From Rouxiella aceris (GTDB lineage Bacteria > Pseudomonadota > Gammaproteobacteria > Enterobacterales > Enterobacteriaceae): a DNA stretch of 24,000 nucleotides. The stretch spans positions 324,525 through 348,524 of the forward strand of contig NZ_JAADJU010000005.1 of assembly GCF_012933545.1 (NCBI RefSeq). The letters are read 5' to 3'. Made by a program: the position numbers and the translations under genes. Below, piece by piece: positions 3,380 through 22,133 of this stretch. Position 1 is the stretch's first letter. The number at the start of each line of letters is the position of its first letter. The notes beneath the pieces are model-generated. The model did not search any database and was not told where the DNA came from. It worked only from the letters and a program-made list of their open reading frames with translations.

Positions 3380-3673
3380 ATGGAAGTCACCATGGTCGAA
3401 ATTAACGTCAAGGCGGACAAGGTTGAAGAATTTCTGCGGGTGTTCAAATTGAACCATCTTGGTGCAATCGCTGAACCAGGAAATTTGCATTTTGATGTTT
3501 TACAGGACGAAAATATCGCGACGCGCTTTTATATCTACGAAGCCTATCGCGATAGTGATGCGGTTATTGCCCATAAAAAGACGCCGCACTATCTGGCCTG
3601 CGTCGACGCGTTGGAATCATTAATGTCAGAACCGCGCAAAAAAACCAGCTACAAAGGGGTCTTTCCCGAGTAG
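3380..3673 (+). CDS. lsrG: (4S)-4-hydroxy-5-phosphonooxypentane-2,3-dione (P-DPD) isomerase LsrG
   Basis: 97 aa. [57 protein letters not shown] matches E. coli LsrG (96 aa) as recalled. AGGAG lies 7 nt upstream of the ATG. Confidence 0.9.
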
Positions 3674-3701
3674 GCGGCAGTAGAGTGCGGGAGGTCCATG
3701 C

Positions 3702-3735
3702 ATGCGGCGGCGATGGCGTTGCCGCATTTATCGTC
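3702..3735 (+). terminator. Possible weak terminator after lsrG
   Basis: The stem atgcggc (3702-3708) / gccgcat (3721-3727) is followed by tttatcgtctatt. The loop is long (12 nt) and the T-tract is poor. Confidence 0.35.
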
Positions 3736-3909
3736 TATTAACCTTACCTCCGTATAATTATCGATAAATAATATATTTTACTGATGCGTTATTGGAAGTA
3801 TTAATAATTAAATGGGTCGGTAAGTTTAAAGTTTATTAATTTTTTGACGGTTATATTTTGGTTAAGGCGTGCGCTGCTATTTTCTACCCTCTGTTAAAAA
3901 GGAGGGTTT

Positions 3910-4842
3910 ATGAGAAAATATCAACTCATCGCGGGCCTTTGCGCTGTATTGAGTGTTAATGTGGCGATGGCCAAAAATAATATTTCATTATCTGCTGATA
4001 ATATTACGATGAATACTTCGCTGGGTTGGTTAGGCGGAGAGTCAAAAGAATATGTTTATGATCCCGAAGACGGTCGCAAAATCAGCCAGCTTGACTGGAA
4101 AATAAAAAATACGGCCATTATTAAAGGAGATATCTCCTGGAATGCCCTGGATTGGTTGACGCTCAATGCCCGCGGTTGGACCACGCTCGCCTCTGGCAGC
4201 GCAGGAATGGACGACTATGACTGGAGCAATCCCGGTCAATCCCACTGGACGGACTGGTCAACGCACCCGCGAACCCGCCTGAATTATGCCAATGAATTTG
4301 ATGTCAATATAAAAGGCTGGGTGCTGGCGCATCCTTATTATCGACTGGGTGGGGTGCTGGGTTATCAGCAAACGCGTTTTAGCTGGACGGCACACGGCGG
4401 CGATTATCAATATGATAATGGCAATATTGTTGGCTCCTTTCCGGATAACCTCAGCGTAATAGGCTATCAGCAAACTTTCAGCGCGCCTTATATTGGTCTG
4501 GTGGGGATGTATCGTTATCGGAATTTTGAATTTAATGCCTTATTAAAATTCAGCGCCTGGGTGCAGGCCAAAGACAATGACGAACATTATCGTCGCAGTC
4601 TGACTTTTCGCGAGAATACGTATCGCTCGCGCTATTACTCCGTTACCCTTGATGCCGGGTATTATGTCACGCCTAACGCTAAGGTCTTCACCGAGTTAAG
4701 CCTGAGTCAATATACTCAGGGGAAAGGCGGCATACATATGATCAATCAGCAAAGCGGGGAGAGCCAGTATCTCGGCGGTGATGCGGCGGGGATCGCCAAT
4801 AAAAATTACAGCATTACTGCGGGTCTACAGTATCGGTTTTAA
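3910..4842 (+). CDS. Omptin-family outer-membrane aspartyl protease (OmpT/Pla/PgtE/SopA family)
   Basis: 310 aa with a signal peptide (MRKYQLIAGLCAVLSVNVAMA). Homology to E. coli OmpT is strong along the whole length: ...GRKISQLDWKIKN-AI-KGDISW..., ...LTLNARGWT-LASGS--MDDYDW..., ...DNDEHY..., ...YYVTPNAKVF-E..., ...GGDAAGI-NKNY--TAGLQYRF. Both catalytic pairs are conserved (D-Y-D in MDDYDW; D-E-H in NDEHY). GGAGGG lies upstream of the ATG. Confidence 0.93.
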   Translation: MRKYQLIAGLCAVLSVNVAMAKNNISLSADNITMNTSLGWLGGESKEYVYDPEDGRKISQLDWKIKNTAIIKGDISWNALDWLTLNARGWTTLASGSAGMDDYDWSNPGQSHWTDWSTHPRTRLNYANEFDVNIKGWVLAHPYYRLGGVLGYQQTRFSWTAHGGDYQYDNGNIVGSFPDNLSVIGYQQTFSAPYIGLVGMYRYRNFEFNALLKFSAWVQAKDNDEHYRRSLTFRENTYRSRYYSVTLDAGYYVTPNAKVFTELSLSQYTQGKGGIHMINQQSGESQYLGGDAAGIANKNYSITAGLQYRF

Positions 4843-4855
4843 ATCACGCTAAACA

Positions 4856-4886
4856 GACCCTGCCAGGCTGAACACCCGGCAGGGTC
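4856..4886. terminator. Bidirectional hairpin between the convergent omptin and MFS genes
   Basis: A perfect 9-bp GC-rich stem gaccctgcc (4856-4864) / ggcagggtc (4878-4886) sits in the 49-bp gap between two convergent stop codons. It is flanked by aaaca on the left and ggcattt on the right. Confidence 0.6.
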
Positions 4887-4891
4887 GGCAT

Positions 4892-6127
4892 TTATGCGTC
4901 GCGTTCACGGGGCTGACTGGCGGGGCGCATCATGGCGTAGATCGCCACCAGCGCCGCCAGAAACCCCGAGGCGGCACCGACTCCCAGCGACCAGCGCGGG
5001 CCAAAATGGTCGGCGACCCAACCAACAATAGGCGCACCAATCGGCGTACCGCCCAGAGCCACGCCGACGCGCAGCGCCATTACCCGTCCGCGCATGGCGG
5101 GCTCGGTGGCCAGTTGCATCAGACTGCTGCTGGTATTGGTAAAGGTGATAGCGGCGATACCGGTGATCACCAAGGCGCCGGCAAAATACCAATAGCCCGG
5201 TGCCATGGCGGCCAGCAGACCGCCGATGCCAAATATTACTGCCCCGATCAACAGTGAAGCAAACTGGGGTCTGTCGCGCCCGGCGGCGATCAGTGCACCG
5301 GACAGCGTGCCAATGGCCATAAACGACGACAACAAACCATAGCCGCGTGCGTCGGTATGAAAGACGCCCACCGCCATGGTGGAAAGAAATATCGGGAAGT
5401 TCAGGCCAAAGGTACCAATTAGAAAGAGCATAATCAGCATGGCTTTCAGATCCGGACGCTGCCAGACATAGCGCAGCCCTTCGCTAAAACTGCCACGTAC
5501 CCGTTGGGCGCGGGCATTACTCCGCAGCTCTGCCACGCGAAATAAACTCAGCGAAGCGAGGACGGCAACAAAACTAATGCCGTTAAGCAAAAATGCCCAG
5601 CCAGTGCCTACCGAAGCGATGGTCAGGCCGGCAATGGCTGGTCCCACCATGCGCGCGGCGTTAAAGGAGGTGGAGTTGAGCGCCACCGCATTGGACAGAT
5701 CCTCTTCGCCAACCAGCTCGGCAACAAAGGTTTGCCGCACCGGGGCATCAAAGGCGGCGGCACTGCCGAACAGAAAGGCGAAGACATAGACATGCCATAG
5801 CTGCACCAGGCCGCTAACGGTAAGCAGACCGAGCAATAACGCCAGCACGCCCATCGTCCCCTGGGTAACCAGCAGTAGTTTGCGCTGATTAAAGTAGTCA
5901 GCGGCGAACCCGGTCCACGGCAATAAGAGCATCTGCGGGCCAAACTGTAGCGCCATAACGATACCCACCGCCGAGGCATTATGGTTGGTCAACTGGGTCA
6001 GAACTAACCAGTCTTGTGCGGTGCGCTGCATCCAGGTGCCAATATTAGAGATCAGTGCGCCGACTGCCCAGACACGATAGTTGAAGCTGCGCAAAGAACG
6101 AAAAGTACCTCGGGTCGCAGTGGTCAT
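4892..6127 (-). CDS. MFS transporter, EntS/MFS_3-like (12-TM efflux-type)
   Basis: 411 aa and highly hydrophobic with about 12 predicted helices. The N-terminal FRSLRSFNYRVWAVGALISNIGTWMQRTAQDWLVL is typical of the enterobactin-exporter-like MFS_3 family. It lies immediately downstream of a MarR gene on the same strand. Confidence 0.85.
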   Translation of the reverse strand: MTTATRGTFRSLRSFNYRVWAVGALISNIGTWMQRTAQDWLVLTQLTNHNASAVGIVMALQFGPQMLLLPWTGFAADYFNQRKLLLVTQGTMGVLALLLGLLTVSGLVQLWHVYVFAFLFGSAAAFDAPVRQTFVAELVGEEDLSNAVALNSTSFNAARMVGPAIAGLTIASVGTGWAFLLNGISFVAVLASLSLFRVAELRSNARAQRVRGSFSEGLRYVWQRPDLKAMLIMLFLIGTFGLNFPIFLSTMAVGVFHTDARGYGLLSSFMAIGTLSGALIAAGRDRPQFASLLIGAVIFGIGGLLAAMAPGYWYFAGALVITGIAAITFTNTSSSLMQLATEPAMRGRVMALRVGVALGGTPIGAPIVGWVADHFGPRWSLGVGAASGFLAALVAIYAMMRPASQPRERDA

Positions 6128-8731: not shown

Positions 8732-9019
8732 TCACCTCATTCTTTCGCTTGCTAAGTGATAAACATCACTGCGTTCACGCTTACCCACAGCAACAACTGC
8801 GATAACCAATATTTCGTCAATAACCTGATATACCAGGCGGAAACCAGAGGCTCGAAGTTTTATTTTATAGCAGTCCTTTATGCCACGTAATTTTGACGAT
8901 GGAATATGTGGATTTTCACAACATTTTTTTAATTTCTTTGCAAACTGTTGCTGAATGGTCTTATCCAGCTTCTGCCACTCTTTCAGCGCATCTTCCCTGA
9001 ATTTGACCTTATAATTCAT
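8732..9019 (-). CDS. relE: Type II toxin, RelE/StbE (ParE/RelE superfamily) mRNA interferase
   Basis: 95 aa. ...ALKEWQKLDKTIQQQFAKKLKKCCENPHIPSSKLRGIKDCYKIKLRASGFRLVYQVIDEILVIAVVAVGKRERSDVY closely parallels E. coli RelE (ALKEWRKL..., KLRGMPDCYKIKLRSSGYRLVYQVIDEKVVV-V--VGKRERSEVY) as recalled. Its start overlaps the antitoxin stop by 4 nt. Confidence 0.88.
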   Translation of the reverse strand: MNYKVKFREDALKEWQKLDKTIQQQFAKKLKKCCENPHIPSSKLRGIKDCYKIKLRASGFRLVYQVIDEILVIAVVAVGKRERSDVYHLASERMR

Positions 9020-9267
9020 AGATAGCTATCCAGATCTATTTCAAGTAGCGGTTGGTTACCGCGCTCACTGACCAGTTTAACCAGCTCCTGATCATCCAGG
9101 GCGTCGAGTATTTTTTCATAGAGTTCTGCGGGTACACAATAGAATGCAGGTTGATTACGGTTCAGTATCGCGACAGGGAAACCGTCACCGGCATTGACTG
9201 TAGCCATAGGGTTCTTTTTTAACTCGCTTACGCTGGCGCTGGTATCACTTAAAATAATGTTCGGCAT
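9016..9267 (-). CDS. Type II antitoxin, Phd/YefM (StbD-like) family
   Basis: 83 aa. The N-terminal SVSELKKNPMATVNAGDGFPVAILNRNQPAFYCVPAELYEKILDALDD fits the Phd/YefM fold signature (S...ELR.N....v......pv.I..rn.p.avlv....ye). It lies upstream of the toxin and overlaps it by 4 nt. GAGGGTGAG lies upstream of the ATG. Confidence 0.85.
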   Translation of the reverse strand: MPNIILSDTSASVSELKKNPMATVNAGDGFPVAILNRNQPAFYCVPAELYEKILDALDDQELVKLVSERGNQPLLEIDLDSYL

Positions 9268-17887: not shown

Positions 17888-18346
17888 CTCGTTTTATTGA
17901 TAGTGCGGCGGCTCTTGCCAACAGGAATGAGCCGCTACGCTATCTCCGCAAGCTGTGAAATCCTTGCCTTACTGCCATTCCCTTATTTGGTGTCGTGACT
18001 CTTCCCTCTCTTTCGCAGCTCAACTGAGCTTCCCGCGCAATCATTGGACCTGAGTGTCCAAAACTGATGCCTTTTTTGAATGTTCATACGCCATGACTTT
18101 TTCCAGTAAAAACGTGAAATAACTGTCTGATTATAAATTATGTGCTGTTTTATTTAAGTTATTTTGTATAAAACGATAATAAATAATGTTTTAAGGGAAA
18201 TTTCCATTGGTTATTATTGCTGTGATTTTAACCATGGCAATGACAAGGATAATCATATGGCTAAGTATTACCGCAACCAACAGATGCCTGAAATTCCGGC
18301 CAGGAAAAGGAGTATTACCCGCTATTTTGGTATGGAGGGATAGCGG

Positions 18347-20035
18347 ATGGGATATCGAGAGGATTGTTATGGGCGAGGATTAGCCCTTAATGGCGATAAA
18401 ACCACAACAGGTGCCAGTTGTATCAGCTCTACGGGATCGCGGGTTTCCTATTTTGGTCGCGGGATCGTCCGGGTGGGGGATGTGACCACCGACTGCCCGA
18501 AGTGTGGGCGGTATGGACGCATTATAGATGGTGAATCGAGATCGCAATATTTCGGTGCAGCGGCTGCGGTGGACGGGTCGCTGGTAGTTTGTCACTGCCC
18601 GGAAGGCAGTAACCGTGTTATTGCCCCTGCGGGAGAATGGCTGGGACGGGGAAAATCGCCAGAGCAACAAGCAGAGGAAAGACAAAAGGTCCGGCTGGCG
18701 ACCAGAAAAGCTGAACAAGCTGCACAAGAAAAACGATTAGCAGCAGAAAGAGAGCGCAACCGCGTATTTGCCAAATCCTGTCTGCGCGGAGAAGGATGTA
18801 ATGATGCCGGAGATCAGTGCGAACCGCACAGCAATTTTGCCCGTATGGCGTTTTATCAGGCAGCACCCGTCACAGATACGACGGCACGACAACACACCGA
18901 GTCTGGCAAAAAGCAGCCGTCTGCCGAGGCGATCCCTAAACCCAAGAGGCATAGTGCACTCTATAAATGGCGGTATGGCAATCATGAGGAAATGGATTAT
19001 CAGGCGGCTTTAGCCACCATGGCAGGTATGGCTCGTGTGCAGACCGCAATGGCCGGGGCCAACGTGCTTACTCCTATAGCCGGAAACCTTGCAGTGCCAG
19101 GAACCTGGGCAGTGAGTGCTGCCCGTATCGCAGTTGGCGGCATAGGTGCCCCCCTGGCCGGACTGCTGGTGGGCATGATGCCCGGCAGGTTGAATAACGG
19201 TGAGCAGGATTTTATTGACCGTATGCGGCTCGAACAGATGCGGGAAGCACCAACCCGCGTCCGGTTTACCTGGGAGAATGACACTCAGGGTAACCCTGTA
19301 CCGCACGGCTGGCATACGCCAGCGGGGCAGGATAAAGTACGGGTACGTAGCATGCAGTGGAATAATAGCCGGCAAGCCTATACCTTTACCACGGAAGAGG
19401 ATGATCCGCTTACCCTTATCTGGACACCAGACAGCTCAGGGATGGAGATTCCGGCCCACACCGGAGATCAATCGCCCCCCCAGCTCCCCGGCTCGGTAAT
19501 GGTTGATCCCTTACCGGACAATAACGGATTCGATAGCACTGTCAGCCCGGCACCGGAAGAGAAGGGTTTTGCGGATTATATTCTTATTCTGCCCCTGCCA
19601 AATATTCCGCCGATCTATATTTATTTGAGTAAACCTCCCGTGGAATTTCTGGAGGTGGAGCTGTATAGCGATTTTATTCGCAGGTCAAGGCAGGGAAAAT
19701 ACGAAGCAGACCATATGCCCTCTAGGGCTGCGGTTGAGCGTTATTATATGAATAAATATCCTACAATGGATATTGAACAAATTACTGAACTTTCAAACAG
19801 AGTGGCATCAATTGTAATACCGAAAGAGGTTCACAGAAGGGTAAGCGAGACATTTGGTGGACGTAACTCAGATACTCGAATCGATCTGGACTCTCGCGAC
19901 CTAAGGGCAGCAGCTGACAGTAACCTTGATGCGATAAAACCAAAATTGCAGGAATACGGTGCAACTGAACAGCAAATTGAGGCAGTAAGAGCAAGAGTGC
20001 ATGAGCTAAATTCAAAAATAGGGTTATACAAATGA
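18347..20035 (+). CDS. Polymorphic toxin: N-terminal PAAR-like (zinc-ribbon type) domain, Gly/Ala-rich hydrophobic segment, S-type-pyocin-like domain, and an unassigned ~130-aa C-terminal toxin domain
   Basis: 562 aa; GGAGGG lies 5 nt upstream of the ATG. Residues ~13-97 (LNGDKTTTGASCISS...VRVGDVTTDCPKCGRYGRII...AAAAVDGSLVVCHCPEGSNRVIA) show the three-fold G-D / C-P / A-A-x-x-D-G pattern of PAAR spike-tip domains. Residues ~295-430 (VRVRSMQWNN..QAYTFTTEEDDPLTLIWTPD....P..TG ... FADYILILPLPNIPPIYIYLSKPP) match the S-type pyocin domain and its conserved pre-toxin junction. Residues 431-562 match no toxin family I can recognise. Confidence 0.8.
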   Translation: MGYREDCYGRGLALNGDKTTTGASCISSTGSRVSYFGRGIVRVGDVTTDCPKCGRYGRIIDGESRSQYFGAAAAVDGSLVVCHCPEGSNRVIAPAGEWLGRGKSPEQQAEERQKVRLATRKAEQAAQEKRLAAERERNRVFAKSCLRGEGCNDAGDQCEPHSNFARMAFYQAAPVTDTTARQHTESGKKQPSAEAIPKPKRHSALYKWRYGNHEEMDYQAALATMAGMARVQTAMAGANVLTPIAGNLAVPGTWAVSAARIAVGGIGAPLAGLLVGMMPGRLNNGEQDFIDRMRLEQMREAPTRVRFTWENDTQGNPVPHGWHTPAGQDKVRVRSMQWNNSRQAYTFTTEEDDPLTLIWTPDSSGMEIPAHTGDQSPPQLPGSVMVDPLPDNNGFDSTVSPAPEEKGFADYILILPLPNIPPIYIYLSKPPVEFLEVELYSDFIRRSRQGKYEADHMPSRAAVERYYMNKYPTMDIEQITELSNRVASIVIPKEVHRRVSETFGGRNSDTRIDLDSRDLRAAADSNLDAIKPKLQEYGATEQQIEAVRARVHELNSKIGLYK

Positions 20036-20499
20036 CGGTAAATGTCGAAGCGCTGATTAATAGCTTAGGAAAGAGTTATAGCGAGATCGTTGCCTTGGGT
20101 TTGCTACCTTATAAAACCGAGCCAAGGGGAGCCTCAGGGTCATCTATACTCACTTTAAACATGGCAAAGGAAGGACTCTTTTTAGCCTTCCACCGAGAGG
20201 GAGTCATATTCCGAGAGGTATCTTTGAAAATTCAAAATGATAAGGCCAAAAATTGGATTTTCCCTAGTGATTTACCCTTACCTCTGCAACCCAGTATGTC
20301 TCGAGAATGGGTACATAAAACTTTTGGTAAGCCAGACAAAGCAGAGCCACCGCAAGTTGTAGCTAATTTAGCATTTGGCTGGACGGAACGTTTTACGGCT
20401 GTGCGGTATCAATTACCCATAACAATGCAAATTAGCTATGATTTGCAAGAGATGGTCAAAAAAGTCACTTTCCTTCCAACATCCGAACTGCGTTGGTAG
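20032..20499 (+). CDS. Putative cognate immunity protein (cytoplasmic, 155 aa)
   Basis: The ATG overlaps the toxin TGA (ATGA at 20032-20035). There is no signal peptide or TM segment. It shares the low-GC composition of the toxin C-terminal domain and is followed directly by a strong terminator. I recognised no family. Confidence 0.65.
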   Translation: MTVNVEALINSLGKSYSEIVALGLLPYKTEPRGASGSSILTLNMAKEGLFLAFHREGVIFREVSLKIQNDKAKNWIFPSDLPLPLQPSMSREWVHKTFGKPDKAEPPQVVANLAFGWTERFTAVRYQLPITMQISYDLQEMVKKVTFLPTSELRW

Positions 20500-20518
20500 C
20501 GGCAATATGAACTTAAAT

Positions 20519-20554
20519 AGCAGCACACTTTCTTATGTGCTGCTTGATTTTTTA
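20519..20554 (+). terminator. Rho-independent terminator after the toxin/immunity pair
   Basis: The stem agcagcaca (20519-20527) / tgtgctgct (20536-20544) is followed by tgaTTTTTTaT. Confidence 0.8.
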
Positions 20555-20633
20555 TCAGCCATCTTAACGCTGATGTGCGGCTTATTCTCGCAGAGATTAA
20601 GCCGCTAAGTGGCAATGATTGACCTAAAGAAGA

Positions 20634-22133
20634 TTAACTTATATCGCTCGACGCTGGTTGTTGCGCCATTGCCGGTTGGCGTTTTTGCAACTGAGCTTCC
20701 AGTTCTTCCAGGGATTTACCTTTGGTTTCCGGAACAAATTTCCACATAAACAGCGCCGCCAGCAGGCCCATAACGCCGTATAACCAGTAGGAAAAACCGT
20801 TATTGAAATGGGCGTTCAGATAGCTGTTTTTATCCATCATCGGGAAGGTCCAGGAGACCAGGTAATTGGCAATCCACTGTGCCGCCACGGCAATCGACAT
20901 GGCTTTACTGCGGATACGGTTGGGGAAGATTTCTGCCAGCAGCACCCAGCAGACCGGTCCCCAGGAAATGGCAAATGAAGCGACGTAAAACAGCATGGCA
21001 CCCAGGGCGACTGTAGGGGACATTTTGGTATAGAACGCGGTTCCCAGGGTGAACATGCCGAAGGCCATCCCCAGTGCACCAATAATTTGTAAGGGCTTAC
21101 GACCAAAATTATCTACCGTTAAAATGGCAATGGTGGTGAACAGCAGATTTATCACGCCAACAATAATAGTTTGCAGCAGGGCAACATCGGTGCTGGAACC
21201 CACGGAACGGAAGACTTCCGGTGCGTAATAGAGCACAACGTTAATACCTACAAACTGCTGGAAGACAGAAAGCAGAATACCAATAACGATAATGCCGATG
21301 CCAAACGAAAATAGCGGCGTATTTTTGGTCGGGCTGGCATTTACCGAATTAAGAATATTGCGCAATTCAATTTGGCTCTGCACTTTGCCCAGCAGTTTTT
21401 GCAATACGGCGGCTGCTTCGGCATTCATACCTTTTACTGCCAGCCAGCGTGGACTTTCCGGCACGGCAAACAGCAGAATGAAAAACAGCATAGAGGGCAC
21501 CGCGCCGGAAAGAAACATAAAGCGCCAGCCCATGGTATCCAGCCAGGAGGCGCTACCGGACAGGGCGATGCCGTAGTTGACGCAGTAGACCAGCAGTTGG
21601 CCGAGAATAATGGCAAACTGGTTGCAGGCCACCATTCGACCGCGAATTTTGGCCGGAGTAATTTCGGCGATATACATTGGCGAGACCATTGACGCCAGCC
21701 CAACACCGATGCCGCCGATAATGCGGTAGATAACAAATTCACTCAGGTAGCCGGAGAGATAATAGGGAATACCGTCGTTGGCGTTAATGGCGCGGTGACC
21801 AAATTCGGGAAAGGCCGACCCCACCGCCGACAGACAAAACAGCACCGCCGCGACCAGTAAGGTTTTCTTTCTGCCGAAGCGGGCGCTCAATGGGCCGCCA
21901 CAGGCACCGCCGATAATGCAGCCGATCAGGGCGCTGGCCACGCAAAAACCGAGTAAAGCGTTTGCCGCCGACTCACTTAATCCACGCGGGGTGATAAAAA
22001 CCGTGTTCAGCGTTGAAACCGTTCCGGAGATCACCGCCGTATCGTAACCAAATAATAATCCGCCTAATGTCGCAACCAGCGTAATGGATATTATATAGCG
22101 ATTATTGGCTTTCATCTCAGATGTTGTTGCCAT
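20634..22133 (-). CDS. xylE: D-xylose:proton symporter XylE (MFS sugar porter family)
   Basis: 499 aa. The near-colinear match to E. coli XylE as recalled includes: ...ITLVATLGGLLFGYDTAVISGTV.SLNTVF..P..LSESAAN.LLGFCVASALIGCIIGGA.GG..., ...PESPRWL..., ...FQQFVGINVVLYYAPEVF..., ...GRKPLQIIGALGMA.GMF.LGTAFYT..., ...WGPVCWVLL.EIFPN.IR.KA..IAVAAQW.ANY.VSWTFPMMDKNS.L.AHF.NGFSYW.YG.MG.LAALFMWKFVPETKGK.LEELE. Confidence 0.92.
   Translation of the reverse strand: MATTSEMKANNRYIISITLVATLGGLLFGYDTAVISGTVSTLNTVFITPRGLSESAANALLGFCVASALIGCIIGGACGGPLSARFGRKKTLLVAAVLFCLSAVGSAFPEFGHRAINANDGIPYYLSGYLSEFVIYRIIGGIGVGLASMVSPMYIAEITPAKIRGRMVACNQFAIILGQLLVYCVNYGIALSGSASWLDTMGWRFMFLSGAVPSMLFFILLFAVPESPRWLAVKGMNAEAAAVLQKLLGKVQSQIELRNILNSVNASPTKNTPLFSFGIGIIVIGILLSVFQQFVGINVVLYYAPEVFRSVGSSTDVALLQTIIVGVINLLFTTIAILTVDNFGRKPLQIIGALGMAFGMFTLGTAFYTKMSPTVALGAMLFYVASFAISWGPVCWVLLAEIFPNRIRSKAMSIAVAAQWIANYLVSWTFPMMDKNSYLNAHFNNGFSYWLYGVMGLLAALFMWKFVPETKGKSLEELEAQLQKRQPAMAQQPASSDIS

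Follow-up and report, generated by a model that had tools for sequence, protein, structure and literature searches.

A putative T6SS effector-immunity module with a PAAR, a Pyocin_S and a predicted TseN-type DNase domain on a strain-specific insertion in Rouxiella aceris

We analysed a window of 24,000 nucleotides from Rouxiella aceris SAP-1 and found, on a 2.65-kb strain-specific insertion, a locus that is in all likelihood a two-gene T6SS effector-immunity module. The larger gene joins a PAAR domain, a Pyocin_S domain and a C-terminal toxin domain, and the smaller one, which overlaps its stop codon, encodes a protein of the PF19929 family.

In the mechanism that we propose, the PAAR domain would cap a VgrG spike encoded elsewhere and the whole protein would be fired into a neighbouring Gram-negative cell, as the presence of this domain suggests. 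The Pyocin_S/inner-membrane translocation (IMT) domain, possibly aided by a Gly/Ala-rich segment, would bring the C-terminal domain from the periplasm through the inner membrane. The C-terminal 132 residues would act as a non-HNH DNase of the TseN class, to which pyocin S3 presumably also belongs, and degrade the target chromosome. The PF19929 protein would probably protect the producer and its kin by binding and blocking this DNase. Since all the modules belong to families that have already been described, the locus is a fresh example of a known design and not a new kind.

Table 1. Features of the R. aceris module, with positions counted from the first letter of the window
Feature	Position	Strand	Evidence
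Strain-specific 2,655-bp segment with the entire module	17979..20633		BLASTN against contigs L041/L042
Toxin ORF, PAAR + Pyocin_S + C-terminal toxin domain	18347..20035	+	ORF list, Pfam
PAAR domain, residues 16-85, presumed VgrG spike-tip adaptor	18392..18601	+	Pfam PF05488, 38.4 bits
Charged linker, probably helical, residues ~100-140	18644..18766	+	Inspection of the sequence
Gly/Ala-rich hydrophobic segment, residues ~240-280, just N-terminal to the IMT domain	19064..19186	+	Hydropathy
Pyocin_S/IMT domain, residues 295-426	19229..19624	+	Pfam PF06958, 107.8 bits
Toxin domain, predicted TseN/pyocin-S3-type non-HNH DNase fold, residues 431-562	19637..20032	+	Profile, AF2, Foldseek
Immunity gene, 155 aa, PF19929 (DUF6392/CdiI_5)	20032..20499	+	Pfam, E 8.3e-63
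Intrinsic-terminator-like hairpin and T-run closing the operon	20519..20552	+	Sequence; G+C-rich hairpin at 20519-20544

Organisation of the locus

The toxin gene encodes 562 amino acids from an ATG start codon, with a ribosome-binding site (GGAGGG) 7-8 nt upstream of it. The start codon of the immunity gene sits in the ATGA that holds the toxin stop codon. The initial annotation had described this order of a 562-aa ORF, an overlapping 155-aa ORF and a terminator, and we confirmed it from the sequence. The left neighbour is cheV, which encodes a CheW and a receiver domain, and the right neighbour is the gene of a Sugar_tr MFS transporter (xylE), followed by xylose isomerase. No Rfam family matched, and the 368-bp left intergenic region, searched for remnants of a toxin or immunity cassette lying upstream, held none. 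A search for the exact toxin sequence found no record in the encoding-contig index.

Among the long, non-nested ORFs of the window (at least 100 aa) none encoded Hcp, VgrG, Eag or DUF4123, in agreement with the initial annotation, which had called the toxin an orphan cargo effector. The first word stands within the window, where the module lies away from T6SS genes in a housekeeping context. The term "cargo" has to be dropped, because toxins fused to PAAR count as specialised (evolved) effectors. A literature search for a T6SS in Rouxiella aceris returned nothing.

The delivery region

Pfam placed both the PAAR and the Pyocin_S domain above their gathering thresholds, with a cut-off of 27 bits for PAAR_motif, and the hydropathy profile (Kyte-Doolittle, 19-residue window) reached its maximum of 1.73 at residues ~257-273. 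The PAAR-like N-terminus, the hydrophobic Gly/Ala-rich stretch and the S-type-pyocin domain that had been read by eye from the sequence were thereby all recovered. The Pyocin_S domain matched PDB 3MFB (E 2.5e-23), which was the sole match in single-sequence PDB searches, for which the immunity protein as well as the toxin and its PAAR region served as queries. It lies directly N-terminal to the toxin domain, which begins at residue 431, and the NCBIfam model of the VPA1263 effector aligned over toxin residues 234-429. Pyocin_S is an inner-membrane translocation domain common to nuclease bacteriocins and T6SS effectors; its role in inner-membrane import was shown for pyocin G (FtsH/TonB-dependent) and has been proposed for T6SS effectors (PMC9040868). 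The Gly/Ala-rich segment may serve in membrane insertion, and one possibility is that it is an autonomous insertion element needed by the T6SS-delivered versions.

The PAAR and Pyocin_S modules had been thought to point to different delivery routes, a view that does not hold since their combination is already documented (PMC10763514; PMC11237486). Lone PAAR-Pyocin_S genes outside T6SS clusters were described in Enterobacter, and Ppp1-3 of Enterobacter bugandensis resemble the R. aceris toxin in this respect (PMC10763514). These three proteins and a homologue from E. cloacae share its architecture, with 521-579 aa and Pyocin_S at about residues 298-442. The E. cloacae protein has a clearly orthologous N-terminus (MGYRTDNFGRGQAL...) and the same toxin domain followed by a PF19929 gene, but a frameshift interrupts its toxin. 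The description of the Ppp proteins was purely in silico, and Ppp2 carries a colicin-E3 rRNase domain instead (PMC10763514).

YPK_0952/YPK_0953 of Yersinia pseudotuberculosis are alike in the order of PAAR, Pyocin_S and C-terminal nuclease and in the downstream immunity gene (PMC11237486). Secretion of YPK_0952 by T6SS-3 and its metal-dependent DNase activity were shown (PMC11237486). However, YPK_0952 has a toxin domain of another family and sits in an effector island, not alone. It was first suspected to be of the same toxin family, as the spacing of its F441/Y450 matches that of F443/Y452 in the R. aceris toxin. Translated, the published mutagenesis primers read HWKKHGSE-F-PELTNSKE-Y-VDATHDF, a sequence without counterpart in the R. 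aceris toxin, and the idea was therefore rejected. VPA1263 of Vibrio parahaemolyticus (MIX-Pyocin_S-HNH DNase) is a T6SS effector that likewise has an internal Pyocin_S before the toxin, but it uses MIX and not PAAR for delivery and carries an HNH nuclease in place of the S3/TseN-type domain.

The same domains could also belong to a diffusible bacteriocin, which would be released, perhaps by the T6SS, bind an outer-membrane receptor, enter through Pyocin_S and kill without contact. Pyocin_S and the toxin/immunity pair are indeed shared with soluble S-type pyocins, and YPK_0952, with its PAAR and Pyocin_S, was reported to kill contact-independently after its T6SS secretion (PMC11237486). We consider this reading improbable for the R. 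aceris protein, whose N-terminus is a PAAR domain and not a receptor-binding or Tol/Ton-box translocation region. Soluble members of the family have long and different N-termini, either of the Cloacin type or with 480-530 residues before Pyocin_S. Moreover, the insert holds neither a lysis gene nor a third ORF, and a scan of the 368-bp upstream region found no LexA-like box. Contact-dependent delivery by a T6SS, inferred from the PAAR domain, is the reading that we prefer.

Relatives of the module

By its sequence features the R. aceris protein is a polymorphic toxin: the delivery region is constant, the toxin/immunity cassettes alternate, and the toxin domain is found on other scaffolds. At loci L012 and L015-L018 the N-terminal ~430 residues were kept, with a different C-terminal domain and downstream gene. 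Conversely, the toxin domain was found C-terminal on PAAR, Rhs, CdiA (TPS/DUF637), PT-HINT and colicin-like (Cloacin) N-terminal regions, and 12 of the 69 members of the toxin-domain family also have PAAR. The cheV/xylE synteny was absent from every related locus examined, and no T6SS genes were found among the neighbours tested in the relatives.

In several relatives a conserved ORF of ~165 aa abuts the toxin start. It is absent at the R. aceris locus, and if it encodes a required accessory factor, the R. aceris copy may be poorly secreted. Signs of decay were also seen in relatives: besides the frameshift in E. cloacae, there is an IS insertion in L005, and L034, L036 and L040 have runs of orphan immunity genes. 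Together with the absence of T6SS genes from the window, the missing ORF and the decay would suit a module that is no longer a weapon, for want of a cognate spike or accessory protein, and that persists chiefly through the protection that its immunity gene gives against neighbours with the same toxin. This strikes us as unlikely: the 562-aa ORF is intact, keeps every invariant residue and is served by a good ribosome-binding site and a terminator, and in the relatives PAAR-Pyocin_S genes usually stand alone, outside T6SS clusters.

The C-terminal domain resembles the DNase TseN

Pfam gave no match on residues 431-562, and NCBIfam has no model for this domain. Col-Pyo_DNase (PF21431) was set aside, as it matched in some relatives upstream of the C-terminal domain and not on it. 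The family of the domain comprises 712 representative proteins at E<=1e-3, and D455, H456, H496, S500, T502 and N507 are invariant across it (69 sequences). The family profile matched the crystal structure of the TseN DNase (9J9W_B, E 3.7e-16) over positions 18-132, and the H496 column aligned with the alanine that replaces H254 in the crystallised TseN mutant.

A first AlphaFold run with 20 close homologues gave a pLDDT of 71.6 and no fold match and was discarded. The accepted model was built on a 50-sequence alignment and had a pLDDT of 96.2 and a pTM of 0.89. Like the reported TseN fold, it has three strands (E7-9, E22-26 and E57-62) and about seven helices, and Foldseek returned 9J9W_B as the sole match (E 5.7e-5, probability 1.0, TM 0.72/0.64). 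As judged from the profile and the predicted structure, the toxin domain is homologous to the DNase domain of TseN, with H496 and D455/H456 as candidate active-site residues. A toxin domain without a Pfam model thus receives a residue-level functional prediction and is now linked to a solved structure (TseN, 9J9W).

TseN of Acidovorax citrulli is a T6SS-delivered DNase that needs H254, the counterpart of H496, and is neutralised by TsiN (PMC12574953). It has the same toxin fold, a three-stranded antiparallel sheet with about seven helices (9J9W). What sets TseN apart are a FIX motif and nucleolar localisation signals and the lack of both PAAR and Pyocin_S. It depends on a separate PAAR5, on VgrG5 and on a chaperone, and was studied as an antifungal effector.

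A second relative is the S-type pyocin P0087 of P. aeruginosa, a 762-aa protein encoded beside toxA, which shares the C-terminal domain (BLASTP E 9e-39) and whose gene is joined by the same ATGA overlap to that of a 155-aa PF19929 immunity protein. From its locus position, its size and the annotation of homologues, rather than from a reference sequence, we infer that P0087 is pyocin S3. Pyocin S3 (pyoS3A/pyoS3I) shares the unit of Pyocin_S and toxin domain, with about 45% identity over the latter, but it is soluble, has a receptor-binding/translocation N-terminus of ~480 residues, is taken up through FpvAII and has no PAAR. Its cytotoxic domain is classed as a "non-HNH DNase", and a T6SS version of it was noted in over half of the K. 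pneumoniae strains (PMC5536347).

These matches changed the view of the C-terminal domain, which had been assigned to no toxin family. The profile and the fold connect it with TseN (9J9W), and it has a match in the killing domain of an S-type pyocin from P. aeruginosa, presumably S3. It is thus essentially a predicted nuclease of a known pyocin type with a known immunity family, an outcome that the initial annotation had set against its own proposal.

The presumed DNase activity of residues 431-562 has to be weighed against the low identity to TseN, which is just ~20%, so that the substrate and the metal dependence could differ. A domain that shares the TseN fold alone and acts on another substrate (RNA or nucleotides) would agree with this identity, with the G-D-T-W-R-A-K-N of TseN where the family has S-E-T-Y/F-G-G-R-N, and with the rRNase and tRNase domains that also follow Pyocin_S domains (PMC9040868), but it is very improbable, as the relatives studied by experiment (TseN and the pyocin S3 class) were all reported to be DNases and both the essential histidine and the D-H-x-P-S motif common to the domain and TseN are conserved.

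The immunity protein

The 155-aa protein had been described as soluble and without a recognisable family. It matched PF19929 (DUF6392) over positions 1-151 of 151, with the E-value given in Table 1, and the family assignment is therefore to be corrected. Its relatives are named pyocin immunity protein in NCBI and UniProt records, and it is 27% identical to a P. aeruginosa pyocin immunity protein (E 7e-12). At the related loci, every toxin-domain ORF with downstream sequence has a PF19929 ORF of 150-155 aa that abuts or overlaps its stop codon. The ATGA overlap and this linkage across the related loci examined bear out the proposal of a cognate-type immunity gene. Its product would probably bind and neutralise the predicted DNase.

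TsiN has no detectable sequence relation to PF19929, and a search of the PDB with the PF19929 profile found no relative, TsiN included. The mode of inhibition can therefore not be transferred from the TseN-TsiN structure.

Relation of TseN to pyocin S3

The killing domain of pyocin S3 has been known as a "non-HNH DNase" since 1995 and is still without a Pfam model. TseN was described in 2025 as a DNase of a new class for which no relatives were known (PMC12574953). In the papers searched we found no link between the two. That they form one superfamily is a tentative idea, which we hold to be possible and somewhat doubtful. If it is true, 9J9W would offer a structural template, the first one, for the toxin domain that hundreds of PAAR, Rhs, CdiA and bacteriocin scaffolds carry, and the superfamily would pair with at least two sequence-unrelated immunity families (TsiN and PF19929). 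The module itself is a routine polymorphic-toxin module, for which public records already use the labels pyocin and immunity protein, and it does not overturn the current understanding of T6SS effectors and bacteriocins.

A strain-specific insertion

Two contigs (L041 and L042) encode an identical CheV and have ~99% nucleotide identity to the window. In BLASTN their homology ends at position 17978 and restarts at 20634, and 182 bp of unrelated intergenic DNA take the place of the 2,655-bp segment. Because cheV adjoins xylE in these near-identical contigs, the module is a strain-specific insertion. We found no target-site duplication around the insert.

The G+C content falls from 55% in the delivery part to 43% in the toxin-domain/immunity part, with the break at the toxin-domain boundary. 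The low G+C content of the killing cassette fits a gain by recombination, which is usual for polymorphic toxins. The natural filled and empty alleles of one site would allow clean competition experiments. Separately, a 13-nt exact repeat, which may be due to chance, was observed at positions 18021 and 20688.

A further example of a known toxin-immunity kind

The pair from Rouxiella aceris SAP-1 is a further example of an already known kind of toxin-immunity system. When the sequence was re-read, the two ORFs, their ATGA overlap and the terminator were as the initial annotation had described them, and a ribosome-binding site (GGAGGG) lies upstream of the toxin ATG. Both proposed delivery modules are present in Pfam searches, PAAR_motif at residues 16-85 (38.4 bits, cut-off 27) and Pyocin_S at residues 295-426 (107.8 bits), as is the hydrophobic Gly/Ala-rich stretch, with its maximum at residues 257-273. 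The solved Pyocin_S/IMT (inner-membrane translocation) domain 3MFB matches residues 300-429 (E 2.5e-23). Residues 431-562 had no Pfam match.

The described setting was also borne out. The left neighbour is cheV (CheW plus receiver domain) and the right neighbour is a Sugar_tr transporter, followed by xylose isomerase. Elsewhere in the 24-kb window, the large ORFs that were scanned code for ordinary proteins, chiefly regulators, transporters and enzymes, and also an omptin protease; no T6SS component was found among them. No Rfam element was found. The 18-nt 3' half of the operon terminator (TTATGTGCTGCTTGATTT) is repeated with 89% identity about 190 nt 5' of the toxin start, and this copy may be a cassette-boundary remnant or chance.

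Coordinates of features in the window and in related loci
Feature	Position	Strand	Remark
Toxin ORF	18347-20035	+	562 aa
Toxin domain	19637-20032	+	residues 431-562
Immunity ORF	20032-20499	+	155 aa; start codon inside the ATGA ending the toxin gene
Terminator	20519-20544		G+C-rich hairpin and T-run, 3' of immunity gene
18-nt terminator half / repeat	20533-20550 / 18138-18155		
Insertion breakpoints	17978/17979, 20633/20634		BLASTN
13-nt exact repeat	18021, 20688		
ParE/RelE + PhD/YefM pair	8732-9267	-	95 aa + 83 aa
Omptin gene	3910-4842		
Split toxin, E. cloacae	L003:8863-10555		387 aa + 184 aa
Truncated toxin, another strain	L005:8388-10026		IS3-family element
~165-aa upstream ORF	L006:9495-9992; L008:9497-9997; L010:9500-9997; L012:9473-9997; L016:9494-9994; L023:1323-1781		
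Consecutive PF19929 genes	L036:571-2709; L034:9625-12990; L040:10579-11679		

The toxin domain and TseN

The C-terminal domain had been placed in no toxin family. A word-indexed search with residues 431-562 gave 46 relatives, every one short because the toxin genes had decayed by frameshift or IS insertion. An exhaustive profile search raised the number to 712 representative proteins (E<=1e-3), all with the domain at their C-terminus. Their N-terminal regions are very diverse: PAAR with Pyocin_S, a colicin-like (Cloacin) region followed by Pyocin_S as in soluble bacteriocins, CdiA (TPS domain, haemagglutinin repeats, DUF637), Rhs (RHS repeats, DUF6531) and PT-HINT. Such diversity marks out a polymorphic-toxin cassette. 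Six residues, D455, H456, H496, S500, T502 and N507, do not vary among 69 diverse members and lie within the motifs D-H-x-P-S and H-x3-S-E-T-Y/F-G-G-R-N.

A profile of 50 diverse domains matched one solved structure, 9J9W chain B ("TseN"; E 3.7e-16). The AlphaFold model, built from an alignment of 50 diverse domains, has three strands and about seven helices (pLDDT 96.2, pTM 0.89). In the Foldseek check that the initial annotation had proposed, 9J9W_B was the sole significant match in the PDB (E 5.7e-5, probability 1.0, TM 0.72/0.64). The Acidovorax citrulli T6SS effector TseN has a C-terminal DNase domain, presented as a new structural class without known relatives, that requires H254 and is neutralised by TsiN (PMC12574953). 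H496 aligns, in the profile comparison, with the Ala replacing H254 in the crystallised mutant. We therefore read the Rouxiella domain as a predicted DNase; a non-DNA substrate has some support, less than this reading.

The 155-aa protein, described as lacking a recognisable family, matches PF19929 (DUF6392, renamed CdiI_5 in a newer Pfam release) over its full length (E 8.3e-63). At least 141 homologues occur across Enterobacterales, almost invariably 155 aa long; the label "pyocin immunity protein" is common among them, and one is annotated as "similar to pyocin S3 immunity protein". In P. aeruginosa, a 762-aa "pyocin killing protein" found on >1000 contigs is encoded two genes away from the exotoxin A gene. 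In PA14, toxA adjoins the pyocin S3 locus. The Pyocin_S and toxin-domain region of this protein matches the Rouxiella toxin at E 9e-39, with ~45% identity over the toxin domain. A 155-aa PF19929 gene lies directly 3' with the same ATGA overlap, and the two immunity proteins share 27% identity (E 7e-12). From its size, the homologue annotation and the published overlapping pair pyoS3A/pyoS3I (PA14_49520/49510; PMC5493400), we infer that the 762-aa protein is probably pyocin S3.

The recently solved TseN DNase and the "non-HNH DNase" domain of the pyocin S3 type appear to be one fold family, whose immunity partners are unrelated in sequence. This link is the sole mildly new point; pyocins, colicins and bacteriocins go unmentioned in the TseN paper (PMC12574953), and our literature search found no paper linking TseN with pyocins. 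Hundreds of toxins of the PAAR, Rhs and CdiA types carry a domain clearly homologous to that of 9J9W chain B, as does the P. aeruginosa S-type pyocin, probably S3.

Related loci

A scan of species-representative genomes gave 35 related loci, in Enterobacter, Pantoea, Citrobacter, Cedecea, Brenneria, Erwinia, Yersinia pekkanenii, Hafnia, Rosenbergiella and others. Wherever sequence 3' of a toxin-domain ORF was available in the loci examined, that ORF is followed by one of 150-155 aa that belongs to the PF19929 family and abuts or overlaps the toxin stop. In five loci (L012, L015-L018) the match is confined to residues 1 to ~430, and the C-terminal domain and downstream gene differ. None of the related loci adjoins cheV or xylE. 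No T6SS component was found among the neighbours tested, and therefore the lone position is the norm for this group.

In E. cloacae a frameshift in the orthologous toxin gene separates PAAR and Pyocin_S from the toxin domain, and in another strain an IS3-family element truncates the toxin; the immunity gene is intact in both. A decaying module retained for its immunity gene has some support, less than a working effector pair, and the Rouxiella toxin is a single ORF.

Two or three consecutive PF19929 genes with fewer toxins, in L036, L034 and L040, look like orphan-immunity arrays. In L034 (Rosenbergiella nectarea) a truncated toxin fragment and two immunity genes precede a second full toxin-immunity pair. 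In several relatives a conserved ~165-aa ORF ends 3-8 nt 5' of the PAAR-Pyocin_S toxin start. This ORF matches no Pfam or NCBIfam model and lacks a counterpart in the window, while one copy faintly resembles the PAAR region of the toxin itself; it may encode an unrecognised accessory protein or chaperone.

Delivery

The initial annotation's T6SS effector-immunity reading is sound. Its picture of an uncharacterised toxin is contradicted by the TseN/S3 family and PF19929, and the supposed paradox of PAAR with Pyocin_S by published precedents. Pyocin_S is an IMT domain that the pyocin G nuclease needs to reach the cytoplasm, and in T6SS effectors it is found together with PAAR, VgrG and Hcp domains (Atanaskovic et al. 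2022, PMC9040868). Ppp1-3 of Enterobacter bugandensis are lone PAAR-Pyocin_S genes away from T6SS clusters, with products of 521-579 aa and Pyocin_S at about residues 298-442 (PMC10763514), close to the Rouxiella layout. Y. pseudotuberculosis YPK_0952 is a PAAR-Pyocin_S protein with DNase activity, exported by T6SS-3, with an immunity protein encoded downstream (PMC11237486). Its inactivating mutations F441A and Y450A have the spacing of F443 and Y452 in the Rouxiella toxin, which suggested the same toxin family. The published mutagenesis primers translate to HWKKHGSE-F-PELTNSKE-Y-VDATHDF, unrelated to the Rouxiella domain; therefore the toxin domains differ despite the shared delivery architecture.

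Most likely, the toxin would be mounted by its PAAR domain on a VgrG spike whose gene lies elsewhere. Once fired, the predicted DNase would cross the prey inner membrane by means of the IMT domain, perhaps aided by the hydrophobic segment, and would then degrade the chromosome; the PF19929 protein would protect the producer by neutralising the DNase. Diffusible, bacteriocin-like entry has some support, less than T6SS delivery; the module holds no lysis gene, and no LexA-type box was found upstream of the toxin gene.

Insertion and strain variation

The metagenomic contigs L041 and L042 (and the shorter L043-L045) encode an identical CheV in DNA ~99% identical to the window, with only ~270 bp between cheV and xylE. 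In place of 182 bp in these empty alleles stand 2,655 bp of the window, and the toxin-immunity module is thus an insertion. No target-site duplication was found at it; a 13-nt exact repeat may be chance. G+C is 55.0% in the PAAR-to-Pyocin_S part, 42.9% in the toxin domain, 42.7% in the immunity gene and 38% in the upstream spacer (window overall 52.1%). This contrast suggests different histories for the killing cassette and the delivery region.

A ParE/RelE-type toxin and PhD/YefM-type antitoxin pair lies in a low-G+C gap between HxlR and FMN_bind_2 genes. It is present in L041 and absent from the otherwise near-identical L042, and is a second strain-variable insertion in the window. The gene for the omptin-family outer-membrane protease lies in a locally low-G+C stretch (3501-4900; 0.42 at 3501-4000), unlike its surroundings, and may be another acquired gene.
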